From IMG/VR virus record IMGVR_UViG_2751185956_000013: a DNA stretch of 12,536 nt. One strand, 5' to 3'. The notes below the pieces were generated by a model that did no database searches, was not told the origin of the DNA, and saw only the letters and a list, made by a program, of their open reading frames with translations. The position numbers and the translations under genes were made by a program. Shown here piece by piece: positions 6,454-8,731 of the stretch. Each line of letters begins with the position of its first letter. Position 1 is the first letter of the stretch. The stretch is from a virus (lineage: Duplodnaviria > Heunggongvirae > Uroviricota > Caudoviricetes).

Positions 6454-7080
6454 TCAGTGCGGCAGCGGCATTTCAGGCCAGCCGTTTTCATCCAGTTCAG
6501 CTATAAAGCTGTTGTGAAGTTCAGCAAGCGTTTCACGCCCGAACGGGGTCAACTCGCCGCGCTCCGTGTCGATCATGGCCTGATAAAAAACAATGGCGTT
6601 CGCTGTTCCCTGCTCAATGCCGTAGCGCTCAACCATTGCGCCCTCCATGTTGTTAGCCATCGCCAGACGTTCCGCGAACGGGTAAACCACAATCCCCGCC
6701 GTGCCATTGGAGTAAATCGCCACCTGCGATGAAGTGCCGTCAGACTCAGTTACCGTGGTTGTGCCGTTTTCGCGCTTCATCTCAGAAATGAACGTCGTAG
6801 CAATCAGCCAGCGCCACATAGTGACGTTATGCTGCGCGGTGAAGTCGAACCAGCCACGCGCCCCGCCATCAGCAACGGCAAAATGAATGGCGTATCCGAT
6901 ATCTGGCTTATCGTCGTACTCTCCGGCGTCAAGGCCGTTCACGGCGCTCTCGTAGCTGATAAGAGCAACCTGCTCATATCCCCCGGCATCATTGCGGGTC
7001 ATGATATTGACGCCGTGCGGTGTGGCTTCGGCGTGTAATAAGTCGGCATTTCCCGATTTAATGGTCGGTGCGTTGCTCAT
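6454..7080 (-). CDS. hypothetical protein (208 aa)
   Basis: ORF MSNAPTIKSGNADLLHAEATPHGVNIMTRNDAGGYEQVALISYESAVNG...; ATGA overlap with the upstream 87-aa gene. No family recognised. Confidence 0.55.
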   Translation of the reverse strand: MSNAPTIKSGNADLLHAEATPHGVNIMTRNDAGGYEQVALISYESAVNGLDAGEYDDKPDIGYAIHFAVADGGARGWFDFTAQHNVTMWRWLIATTFISEMKRENGTTTVTESDGTSSQVAIYSNGTAGIVVYPFAERLAMANNMEGAMVERYGIEQGTANAIVFYQAMIDTERGELTPFGRETLAELHNSFIAELDENGWPEMPLPH

Positions 7081-7340
7081 GCGCTGCCCTCCGCATCAAT
7101 TCTGGCTATATCGACAATCATCAGGACTTTACTCAGCCAGCAATACGCGATGGCTGCTTGCTCAACTTCGAGGAGTGGTAATAAATCGGTCATAACGTGA
7201 GCCAGCCCATTGCGGGCGCGGGTCATGCGTTCTGCTGTTCGGTCTGCCAGCGTAAAATCATCCGGGTATGCTTCTTTACGAGATAGCATCGATTCGGCTT
7301 CCAGATCTGCCGGGTGGCGATAGATGGTATTTATGTTCAT
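7077..7340 (-). CDS. hypothetical protein (87 aa)
   Basis: ORF MNINTIYRHPADLEAESMLSRKEAYPDDFTLADRTAERM...; ATGA overlaps at both ends (104-aa gene upstream, 208-aa gene downstream). Confidence 0.45.
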   Translation of the reverse strand: MNINTIYRHPADLEAESMLSRKEAYPDDFTLADRTAERMTRARNGLAHVMTDLLPLLEVEQAAIAYCWLSKVLMIVDIARIDAEGSA

Positions 7341-7651
7341 TTGCCCGCCCTCCCTTTGGCTTCTTTTTCACTGATTGAGCGCAAGAATGCGGCGTTTGCA
7401 GCGCTATCGTTCAGCGCCCGCGCAACTTCTCCGATATGTCCCAGCATTGCGCCTAATCTGTACATATCAGCCTTAGCGCTTTCCTCCGGGTAGCCATCGC
7501 TACCAGCCGCCCAGAACATGAGGCTACCAATGGCACTTACGCCCAGCATTAAATCATCCACGGCATCACTGGCGCAGCTCTCAATTCCTTTCAGATCATC
7601 AGGTGTACAACCATCAAATTTGCAGGACACTAAATCGTTATACATGCTCAT
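7337..7651 (-). CDS. hypothetical protein (104 aa)
   Basis: ORF MSMYNDLVSCKFDGCTPDDLKGIESCASDAVDDL...; ATGA overlaps at both ends. Confidence 0.45.
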   Translation of the reverse strand: MSMYNDLVSCKFDGCTPDDLKGIESCASDAVDDLMLGVSAIGSLMFWAAGSDGYPEESAKADMYRLGAMLGHIGEVARALNDSAANAAFLRSISEKEAKGRAGK

Positions 7652-7827
7652 GCCGCCACCTCACGAACGCGGGTAATCTGGATGTGGGAAAGGCGTTCAT
7701 TTCTGGCCTGATTTAGCGCCTCAGCTTTGGCGCTGATCGCGCTGCGGGCGTCAACGATATAAACGAACTCGACTAATTCGCCGCTCCGGGCGGTGGCGCA
7801 TCCTGCAACACGGAAGTAATTAAGCAT
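7648..7827 (-). CDS. hypothetical small protein (59 aa; short form of the 138-aa track ORF)
   Basis: Internal ATG at 7825-7827 (MLNYFRVAGCATARSGELVEFVYIVDARS...) preceded by GGGGG at about 6 nt; the start overlaps the 303-aa gene stop in an ATGCTTAAT junction. The longer 138-aa frame would overlap the 303-aa ORF out of frame for about 240 nt. Confidence 0.4.
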   Translation of the reverse strand: MLNYFRVAGCATARSGELVEFVYIVDARSAISAKAEALNQARNERLSHIQITRVREVAA

Positions 7828-8731
7828 GTGCGCCCCCTGTGCGAATACGTCCGGCAAAAAAGCAAACGTGATCCCGCGCCAGAATGCGGCGGGCTTCCTG
7901 CTCAGTCTCTGCGGCGATATGGTGAATTTTGGCGGTAATTGTCGGCATATCGCGGCGAACTGCTGCGATAATCCAGATAAATTGCGGTTTTTGGGTAGGG
8001 GTAGTAGCCAGCATAGCGGCAGCCTCTGATTCATGGTTTTGAGAACCACCACCGGAAACGCCAATTTCGCTGGTGGTGAACTGTACAGGGTTGGCGTAAC
8101 CGGGAATCAGAGAAACCGGCGCGGATTGCTCCGCCCCCATACAGTCCACCATTGAACAGGTGTAACTGCGCGGCACAAAAAAACACGCATGGCGCGTGTT
8201 GTGCGCTCTGATAATTACCGGGACGCCAATCCCGACACCAGATTTTGCTGGTGCGCTATAACCATAAACCGGGTTGGCGATAGTCGGCAAGCCCTTTTTT
8301 ATGGACTCCAGAAACTCACCTTCGCGCGTGCGCGTACTGTTGCATAAATTCCCTGCATCTAGTGGTGATGTCAGAAAAATCTTCCCGCCTCGTGTAGTGA
8401 TGATGGGAAAATCTTCCTCGCGTAGTGACCCCCAATAAATCTTCGTGCGCGTACTGGTCTCGAAACTCTCCTCGTCACCACGACGAGAAAATGAGGAGCT
8501 GGCATTAGCTGGCACTGTTATGCCAGCTTCGCATTCATGCGCGTGCGTACTTGTCCCGAAAACACCAAGATTTGTAAAGATCTGGCGGTGGCAAATGTCA
8601 GGTTTTGACAGGTTCCAAACGTCGCTATTTGTCGCAATCTGGCGGCGGGCTGCTTTGCTCCAGACGTTAACATTTGCATACATCAGGCCAGCCAGGGGAA
8701 AGGCTTTATTCTGGATGGCGGCATTAAGCAT
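7820..8731 (-). CDS. hypothetical protein (303 aa) containing a degenerate tandem DNA repeat tract
   Basis: Long open frame with GGGGG RBS 7 nt upstream of ATG 8729-8731; start overlaps the AntA-type gene stop (ATGCTTAAT). No family recognised. The central part coincides with the repeat tract at 8311-8490, so the gene model is uncertain. Confidence 0.45.
   Translation of the reverse strand: MLNAAIQNKAFPLAGLMYANVNVWSKAARRQIATNSDVWNLSKPDICHRQIFTNLGVFGTSTHAHECEAGITVPANASSSFSRRGDEESFETSTRTKIYWGSLREEDFPIITTRGGKIFLTSPLDAGNLCNSTRTREGEFLESIKKGLPTIANPVYGYSAPAKSGVGIGVPVIIRAHNTRHACFFVPRSYTCSMVDCMGAEQSAPVSLIPGYANPVQFTTSEIGVSGGGSQNHESEAAAMLATTPTQKPQFIWIIAAVRRDMPTITAKIHHIAAETEQEARRILARDHVCFFAGRIRTGGAHA
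8311..8490. repeat. degenerate tandem repeat tract, about 6 units of 26-33 bp
   Basis: Plus-strand units beginning at 8311, 8344, 8374, 8407, 8435 and 8462, e.g. GAAAAATCTTCCCGCCTCGTGTAGTGATGATGG, GAAAATCTTCCTCGCGTAGTGACCCCCA, ATAAATCTTCGTGCGCGTACTGGTCTC. The GCGCGTACTG core recurs at 8330-8339 and 8447-8456. Unit lengths differ by non-multiples of 3, so copies are not in a constant frame of the 303-aa ORF. Confidence 0.45.

Follow-up and report, generated by a model that had tools for sequence, protein, structure and literature searches.

A probable P4-like antisense-RNA immunity locus nested in a long open reading frame of the early operon of a candidate Escherichia coli phage satellite

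The stretch of DNA analysed here, hereafter the window, comprises 12,536 nt of the IMG/VR virus record IMGVR_UViG_2751185956_000013 (Caudoviricetes) and carries all genes of interest on its minus strand, including an early operon that runs from an AntA/AntB-domain antirepressor gene (antA) to a P4-family primase gene. In E. coli O6:H16 M9682-C1 (NZ_CP024275), an identical island is found with yicC on one side and dinD on the other. A first-pass annotation of the window had described, between the antirepressor and the primase, six translationally coupled, uncharacterised genes of 303, 59, 104, 87, 208 and 113 aa with good ribosome-binding sites. The six open reading frames (ORFs) and their overlaps or gaps are real, but the range assigned to them, 6454-8731, holds only five, as the 113-aa ORF (p113) lies outside it. 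From antA to the primase, the successive junctions measure -8, -8, -4, -4, -4, +9 and -8 nt, the last one joining p113 to the primase ATG at 6110, which is also the start called by the Prokaryotic Genome Annotation Pipeline (PGAP) and is preceded by AGGAGG. As for the ribosome-binding sites, the starts of the 303-aa ORF and of the 59-aa ORF (p59) have no Shine-Dalgarno match; therefore, both must depend on 8-nt stop/start overlaps, which for the 303-aa ORF and antA reads ATGCTTAA. The placement of these genes in a P4-family early or replication operon is correct. The primase shares 38.5% identity with P4 alpha over 812 aa. In NZ_CP024275, the PGAP product name of the 303-aa ORF is 'host cell division inhibitor Icd-like protein', and the five smaller ORFs are all labelled 'hypothetical'.

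Scanned with Rfam, the window yielded three elements, all within the 303-aa ORF and on the same strand: an isrK/seqA-like leader RNA, a C4/CI-family antisense RNA and a c4-a1b1 target motif scoring just below threshold (Table 1). The isrK element ends in an intrinsic-terminator hairpin (8200-8182) followed by a T-run to about 8176, also found by a terminator scan, and contains two C4 targets, TTGGCGT (8229-8223) and ATCAGAG (8212-8206). Two further targets, TTGGCGT and GAATCAGAG, lie downstream of the C4 element in a seqC-like position. The C4 RNA carries the conserved three-helix fold of the CI/C4 family, and its unpaired specificity segments, CUCUGAUUC (RNA positions 45-53) and ACGCCAA (60-66), are exactly complementary to both upstream and both downstream targets. 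Furthermore, the downstream target GAATCAGAG overlaps the GAGG Shine-Dalgarno sequence (8026-8023) of the ATG that opens a nested icd/kil-like gene. Directly upstream of isrK/seqA, the block GCTTGCCG-18 nt-TATGGT is kept in all aligned loci, shows no third-position excess and aligns at the DNA level with TTGCCT...TATAGT of P4. The start predicted from this block falls near 8254. We infer that the TTGCCG-18 nt-TATGGT block is a candidate equivalent of the PLE promoter. Against a collection of phages, DNA-level conservation was limited to about 8267-7990 of the window, with 69-74% identity to Stx, Salmonella and Hafnia phages, and some of these records annotate C4 and isrK in that stretch.

The kil-type gene that the first-pass annotation expected at this position is present as the last 64 codons of the 303-aa ORF, the product of which shares 39% identity with P4 Kil (tblastn, E 1.5e-6). 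The NCBIfam model phage_ICD_like (NF033153) matches the 303-aa ORF at 4e-19, covering residues 251-298, and the nested 64-aa ORF at 1.1e-20. Pfam Phage_ASH matches the 303-aa ORF at 3.8e-17 over residues 157-250, which correspond to the translated RNA region. Hence the earlier statement that none of the six genes has a recognisable motif fails for the 303-aa ORF, which matches Phage_ASH, phage_ICD_like, isrK and C4. P4 Kil is toxic on overexpression. Icd of phage P1 blocks Z-ring formation, according to PMC11897509.

Table 1. Features of the window (positions counted from its first letter) and the data that define them
Feature	Position	Strand	Remarks
Integrase gene	12536-11283	-	First gene of the order
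316-aa low-GC ORF	10314-11264	-	Between integrase and alpA
AlpA-like helix-turn-helix gene	10207-10004	-	Followed by a 144-aa ORF (p144), then antA
AntA/AntB-domain antirepressor gene antA	8724..9557	-	Pfam AntA 4.1e-21; PGAP
303-aa ORF, eta-like long open frame (303 codons)	7820..8731	-	Coupled to antA, no Shine-Dalgarno
Repeat-rich, indel-prone part of the eta-like frame	8327..8561	-	Three 22-nt repeats containing AGTACGCGCACG; three tandem ~30-nt repeats
Candidate PLE-like sigma-70 promoter	8261..8290	-	-35 TTGCCG 8290-8285, 18-nt spacer, -10 TATGGT 8266-8261
c4-a1b1 target motif	8267-8215	-	Rfam, 45.1 bits (threshold 46.7)
isrK/seqA-like leader RNA	8178..8254	-	Rfam RF01394, 81.1 bits (threshold 50), E 1.7e-16
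C4/CI-family antisense immunity RNA	8069..8156	-	Rfam RF01695, 76.7 bits (threshold 45), E 5.8e-14
seqC-like downstream targets	8024..8064	-	TTGGCGT 8064-8058; GAATCAGAG 8032-8024
Nested Icd/Kil-like gene, 64 aa	7820..8014	-	ATG 8014; own GAGG Shine-Dalgarno 8 nt upstream
p59, 59-aa basic protein	7648..7827	-	No Shine-Dalgarno; 8-nt overlap with eta/kil stop
p104, 104-aa acidic protein	7337..7651	-	ATGA overlap; pI 4.6
p87, 87-aa acidic protein	7077..7340	-	ATGA overlap
p208, 208-aa strongly acidic protein	6454..7080	-	Net charge about -18; confident orphan fold (predicted)
p113, 113-aa protein	6103..6444	-	Stop overlaps primase ATG by 8 nt; confident orphan fold (predicted)
P4-family primase/helicase gene (alpha-like)	3669..6110	-	Last of the coupled chain; Pfam Zn_Ribbon_Prim, Toprim_3, DUF5906, D5_N

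This arrangement is that of the immunity region of satellite phage P4. According to PMC10111431, which cites Forti et al. 1999 and Sabbattini et al. 1995, the P4 CI RNA is encoded within the eta gene; the same source describes Kil as a truncated form of Eta and states that translation of Eta prevents termination and is needed for readthrough. P4 has its C4 element at 8507-8420 and its isrK element at 8692-8615, in the same order and inside an open frame as in the window. The P4 frame (8821-8168, 217 codons) begins MMM... and ends in a 65-aa sequence, MATTLTPSHPEF..., and in both elements the last ~65 codons of the long frame encode the Kil/Icd-like protein, the conserved candidate-promoter block is present and the CI target covers the kil ribosome-binding site. 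Both elements, moreover, couple the long frame to the gene before it and let its stop overlap the following gene via (A/G)TGC(T/G)TAA, and both operons end with a P4-family primase. The two differ in the length of the frame, which has 303 codons with a repeat-rich insert here and ~199 in P4, in the loop specificity (CUCUGAUUC here, CCUGUGAA in P4), and in the genes downstream, which are unrelated to P4 epsilon, orf151 and orf106. As far as sequence comparison can tell, the locus has every testable feature of the P4 immunity module, the PLE promoter remaining a candidate.

The overlap motif CATGC(T/G)TAAT is common to three boundaries on the minus strand of the window, antA/eta (8732-8723), eta-kil/p59 (7828-7819) and p113/primase (about 6111-6102), and the eta/epsilon junction of P4 (L016, about 8177-8168) reads GTGCGTAAT. 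This conserved overlap may serve not only to couple translation but also as a point at which modules are exchanged.

Variation among relatives bears directly on whether the antisense RNA and its targets work together. Two sets of loci were compared with the window, one made of 13 loci recovered via the p208 protein from other Enterobacterales genomes plus two near-identical E. coli loci, the other of 80 further IMG/VR loci with an Icd/Kil-like tail, which brings the total to about 95 related loci. A C4-like element is present in 80/80 of the IMG/VR loci. Across the genome loci and P4 there are about ten C4 loop sequences, both targets change to match every time, and the downstream target always abuts GGAGG-N8-ATG. 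The 80 IMG/VR loci fall into 21 loop classes; the downstream target is complementary over 8-10 nt in every class and the upstream target over 7-9 nt in most of them. Altogether, the loop specificities across the about 95 loci number more than 21. Furthermore, the C4 consensus fold of 10 distinct, Rfam-delimited sequences contains 28 pairs, 13 of which show compensatory double changes. The co-variation of loops and targets, together with these compensatory pairs, thus provides strong comparative evidence for an antisense system that works in these loci. The co-varying pairs also constitute a candidate set of orthogonal antisense RNAs and targets, their orthogonality being putative.

One of the E. 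coli loci, L002 (strain GDSC2239PM, NZ_CP136018), carries at 2047-2330 an isrK/C4/target cassette of another specificity, with the loop CCUGUAAC and matching targets. Its flanking genes are 98-100% identical to those of the window, and where the window has one long frame, L002 has separate 'ash family' and 'Icd-like' ORFs. The immunity cassette of L002 is an apparent recombinational replacement.

The first-pass annotation had counted the 303-aa ORF as a gene for an uncharacterised protein. This does not hold: the ORF is taken up by an immunity locus (promoter candidate, seqA/isrK, CI/C4 and seqC), and most of its length is unconstrained as protein. In 13/15 of the genome loci, no stop interrupts the frame that runs into icd over the 174-321 codons that precede the icd start. 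The five remaining frames carry 3-24 stops each there, and none of 20,000 shuffles of the window region is stop-free. Likewise, a single stop-free frame spans the region from seqA to the icd Shine-Dalgarno sequence in 77 of 78 IMG/VR loci, compared with 7.7% of shuffles. On these counts, the idea that the ORF is simply spurious was rejected.

Another reading holds that the long ORF is an annotation artefact, that only the RNAs and the 64-aa Icd/Kil protein are functional, and that the region upstream of the icd start is never translated. It would accommodate the promoter-like block, the intrinsic terminator and the RNA gene, all of which lie within the ORF, as well as the start devoid of a Shine-Dalgarno sequence, the unconstrained amino-acid sequence, and the breaks in the frame of a 98%-identical E. 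coli relative and of a Klebsiella locus. However, besides the stop-free frames (13/15 loci against 0/20,000 shuffles, then 77/78 against 7.7% expected), every indel keeps the frame, the start overlaps the antA stop (ATGCTTAA) in a standard coupling arrangement, and translation of P4 eta is required for readthrough, as reported second-hand in PMC10111431. We therefore hold it to be highly improbable that the region goes untranslated.

Selection acts very differently along the frame. The median ratio of nonsynonymous to synonymous substitution rates (dN/dS) is 0.83 before isrK and 0.91 in the RNA-overlapping part, the latter value being confounded by RNA constraints and by the diversifying specificity loops. 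Upstream of icd, differences are spread evenly over the three codon positions (692/637/718 before isrK, 1116/1210/1209 in the RNA-overlapping part); in gapless blocks they amount to 21/19/15 and 34/44/31, and nonsynonymous codon changes are about four times as many as synonymous ones. The icd part has a dN/dS of 0.125 with differences of 281/286/1092, and the neighbouring genes all show a third-position excess (dN/dS of 0.063 for p144, 0.158 for antA, 0.205 for p87, 0.225 for p208 and 0.239 for p113). Furthermore, the part before isrK ranges from 82 to 186 residues among relatives, through indels that fall between copies of the repeat containing AGTACGCGCACG and are always in frame.

The tandem ~30-nt repeats read AAGATTT...TCACTACnCGAGG; both they and the 22-nt repeats precede the candidate promoter within the long frame. 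The in-frame insertions and deletions of relatives are bounded by the 22-nt repeat. A 16-nt inverted repeat is found at 8490-8535.

These values also bear on the possibility that the 303-aa ORF encodes a genuine multidomain 'Ash-Icd' regulator of the Bro network, whose N-terminal two thirds would depend on their sequence for DNA binding or antirepression, the RNA matches being secondary. PGAP does annotate a single protein, residues 144-303 are matched by Pfam Phage_ASH together with several 'transcriptional regulator' families of PHROG, the open state of the frame is conserved, and PMC10111431 treats eta as a Bro-network gene. Yet purifying selection is not seen upstream of icd in the dN/dS values or in the 4:1 ratio of the gapless blocks, repeat-bounded indels more than double the length of the pre-isrK part, and the spanning frame is in a phase other than that of icd in 46/78 loci, which leaves no constant protein. 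Moreover, the Pfam match falls on the RNA elements, and it is explained by their conservation. We consider such a regulator improbable. With a frame that is kept open while its dN/dS stays near 1, conservation would concern its being translated rather than its product, and an open, translatable frame without protein constraint agrees with the prediction of the P4 model that translation keeps termination from occurring. Judged from these comparisons, the long frame is probably maintained for the act of translation and not for its amino-acid sequence.

Taken together, we think it likely that the window contains an immunity and early-gene region resembling the left operon of P4, within a satellite of the phage-inducible chromosomal island (PICI) type, with a long frame kept for translation and five accessory genes. 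The anatomy and the co-variation can be read from the loci themselves; the dynamics of the switch outlined below are modelled on P4 and P1. In the quiescent island, the internal promoter would produce short transcripts yielding the isrK-like and C4/CI RNAs. By pairing with seqA and seqC as new transcripts emerge, the C4/CI RNA would hide the ribosome-binding site of icd/kil; translation of icd/kil being blocked, the untranslated transcript would be terminated early. The genes for p59, p104, p87, p208, p113 and the primase, chained to icd/kil, would stay silent, because p59, which has no Shine-Dalgarno sequence, overlaps the icd stop and overlaps of the ATGA type link the later genes as far as the primase. 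Through this tight coupling, a single antisense RNA can probably silence the whole chain, the primase included. Upon induction, transcription from upstream of alpA (alpA-p144-antA unit) would bring ribosomes from antA via the ATGCTTAA overlap, and translation through seqA, the terminator, the RNA gene and seqC would prevent both RNA pairing and termination, overriding immunity. Synthesis of the Icd/Kil domain, of the five accessory proteins and of the primase would follow, and replication would start.

Several points weigh against this interpretation. The model takes from P4 its promoter activity, its RNA processing, its Rho-dependent termination and its readthrough, and the candidate promoter fits only 8/12 consensus positions and drew no call from the automatic scan. 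The upstream partner of the long frame is here antA, after alpA and p144, and not orf88 (the alpA/orf88 homologue) as in P4. Of the 78 IMG/VR loci, 31 have a spanning frame that shares the phase of icd and 46 have one in another phase, running 200-400 nt beyond the icd ATG, and the in-phase frame is broken in L002 and L012; out-of-phase or broken frames mean that an eta-kil fusion protein is not required. The confounded dN/dS of the RNA-overlapping part has been given above. Finally, the helper- or host-directed role of the five small proteins, plausible as it is, is tied to no activity.

The region also resembles the immI locus of P1 and P7 (c4 RNA, icd and ant), which has a C4-family RNA with a1/b1-type targets upstream and a2/b2-type targets over the ribosome-binding site of an icd-family gene, followed by translationally coupled genes. 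In P1, however, the antirepressor follows icd and is the controlled output, whereas here AntA precedes the module and the output would extend from p59 through the primase; accordingly, the gene following icd in the window is p59, which has no Ant/Bro domain. P1 is not known to have a long frame spanning c4. A second likeness is to the IsrK small RNA locus of the Salmonella Gifsy-1 prophage, of which the window has a full-length model match, terminator included, and with which it would share the production of a short RNA having the same 5' end as a longer readthrough mRNA, a link that rests on sequence similarity. Unlike at the Gifsy-1 locus, a C4/CI RNA and icd follow; genes of the anrP/isrJ type did not turn up here, no search having been aimed at them.

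With Gram-negative PICIs (EcCICFT073, EcCIMP1 and the elements of PMC10111431), the island shares int, alpA, a Bro-zone antirepressor, an Ash/Icd ORF, a primase and a PerC-family regulator, as well as a size of about 12 kb. According to the annotation of the identical island in NZ_CP024275 and to Pfam, it lacks structural and lysis genes of phages as well as the sid/delta/psu genes of P4, and no match to the corresponding part of P4 (9583-11460) was found. The p59-p113 set is one of many alternative cassettes. EcCIMP1, a related element, has been mobilised experimentally. PMC10111431 reports that the Rfam C4 and isrK models detect relatives of CI and seqA in Gram-negative PICIs, their matches lying in Bro zones. 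In its gene content, the island at the yicC-dinD site fits the pattern of a Gram-negative PICI-type phage satellite in E. coli.

The five smaller ORFs differ from the first in that they look like protein-coding genes. For p87, p208 and p113, dN/dS lies between 0.20 and 0.24 with changes concentrated at third codon positions, and all six frames of the operon are found intact in relatives. Conservation of the run across related elements is nonetheless not uniform, as p59, p104, p87 and p113 each occur in only part of the loci. Among the 80 IMG/VR loci, p59 is present in 39 (at 41-100% identity), p104 in 31, p87 in 48, p208 in 47 and p113 in 32; their relative order never changes, and p87 is found in 8/13 genome loci. 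On this comparative evidence, the 59-, 104-, 87-, 208- and 113-aa ORFs are real coding genes in a mosaic slot.

The earlier description of these five genes as uncharacterised stands. None of p59, p104, p87, p208 and p113 has a Pfam, NCBIfam or PADLOC family, their matches to the anti-phage defence models of PADLOC being at noise level only (E 0.025-0.043), and none has a predicted membrane segment. PHROG matches for p104, p208 and p113 are to function-unknown families only; those of p104 are phrog_6805 (3e-13) and phrog_15327 (1e-10), and p104 had no match in complete phage genomes. Three of the five (p104, p87 and p208) are acidic. A PDB sequence search with p208, p113 and p104 returned nothing below E 0.2. 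The AF2 models predict a confident fold for both p208 and p113, and these structures gave no informative fold match. The p208 family comprises 118 cluster representatives among 1.84 billion proteins; 50 diverse members had no fused Pfam domain, and a profile search with a diverse p208 alignment returned close relatives only. Homology of p59-p113 to P4 epsilon, orf151 and orf106 (DUF5375) was considered and rejected, as no tblastn match with E<0.1 was found onto P4; conversely, the P4 epsilon, orf151 and orf106 proteins used as queries found nothing in ~98 loci including the window. The five genes are genuine but interchangeable early accessory genes, and the place they occupy is taken in P4 by epsilon, orf151 and orf106.

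The five small proteins, especially p208 and p113, which directly precede the primase, could be replication accessory factors such as origin-binding proteins or partners of primase or helicase loading. Relatives of p208 in true, temperate phages (phiP27, CharmingMan) lie in an early accessory operon near the anti-repressor and xis/int, with no primase nearby, a context that speaks more for an accessory role directed at helper or host than for one in replication and proves neither. A replication role is in our view rather unlikely, and the five small proteins most likely modulate the helper phage or the host rather than core replication. The helper- or host-manipulating function proposed in the first-pass annotation is plausible on the basis of this context.

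We also observed that p113 resembles the C-terminal half of p208 in the order of its secondary structures and in an LTxxGRE motif (hhalign E 8e-4), and the two may share a domain. At 5462-5848 of locus L013, a second p208-like gene, 25% identical, lies directly upstream of that locus's own p208. Taken with the likeness of p113 to p208, this gene suggests a small family duplicating within this slot.

The eta/kil/CI layout is established for P4, and its occurrence in PICIs has already been reported (PMC10111431). What appears to be unreported is the signature of the frame, open with a dN/dS near 1 and in two phase configurations, the breadth of co-varying specificities, including the apparent cassette swap in L002, and the confident orphan folds predicted for p208 and p113. 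About 95 elements thereby lend comparative support to the P4 model, in which translation of the leader frame, and not its product, overrides RNA-mediated termination. The analysis also corrects a recurring annotation problem, as the long 'Ash family' or 'Icd-like' proteins of E. coli islands would be for the most part an RNA immunity switch read as protein. The first 'gene' is accounted for by known biology, and the other five are genuine unknowns in a well-understood regulatory setting, in which p208 and p113, predicted to be well-folded orphans, are suited to screens for anti-helper or anti-host activity. More tentatively, and with considerable doubt on our part, the eta-type frame could be a general 'translated spacer' in hundreds of enterobacterial satellites, and p208 and p113 a new two-member domain family placed under the switch and acting on helper or host. 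If this were true, the spacer would be selected only to carry ribosomes through an antisense-RNA immunity locus, would come in two phase configurations, each able to replace the other, and would owe its diversity to in-frame indels mediated by repeats and to swaps of cassettes among more than 21 specificities; p208 and p113, which have no known fold relatives, could then be, for example, acidic protein-binding inhibitors.

Outside the early operon, the 316-aa ORF between the integrase gene and alpA has a GC content of about 0.36, compared with a background of about 0.53. It has no Pfam, NCBIfam, PHROG or PADLOC match, and a full-length homologue was found only in locus L011 (52%). The ORF has the appearance of cargo gained recently in a satellite hotspot. 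The int-alpA gap of relatives holds the Rfam int-alpA RNA (RF02996), which was not detected in the window. At the other end of the island, a DinD-like gene occupies positions 1-825 of the window (minus strand), directly beside a second, chromosomal dinD copy (15406-16751 of L001). The DinD-like gene may be a dinD homologue belonging to the island, or one that replaces the gene at the insertion site.

Some records of homologues call for caution. RefSeq and GenBank name close homologues of p104 'ubiquinol-cytochrome C reductase', those of p87 'nicotinic acetylcholine receptor subunit beta' and relatives of p208 '2-polyprenylphenol hydroxylase related flavodoxin oxidoreductase'; such names occur in L017, L018 and the phage matches H59-H62. 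They look like propagated mis-annotations, no profile supporting any of them. Proteins at least 80% identical to those of enterobacterial island genes also occur in L004 (CACSKA010000004, labelled Chryseobacterium sp.) and in OM284015 (Elizabethkingia phage EKP1), the p113 homologue of the latter being 63% identical. These Flavobacteriia-labelled records probably reflect contamination or mislabelling.

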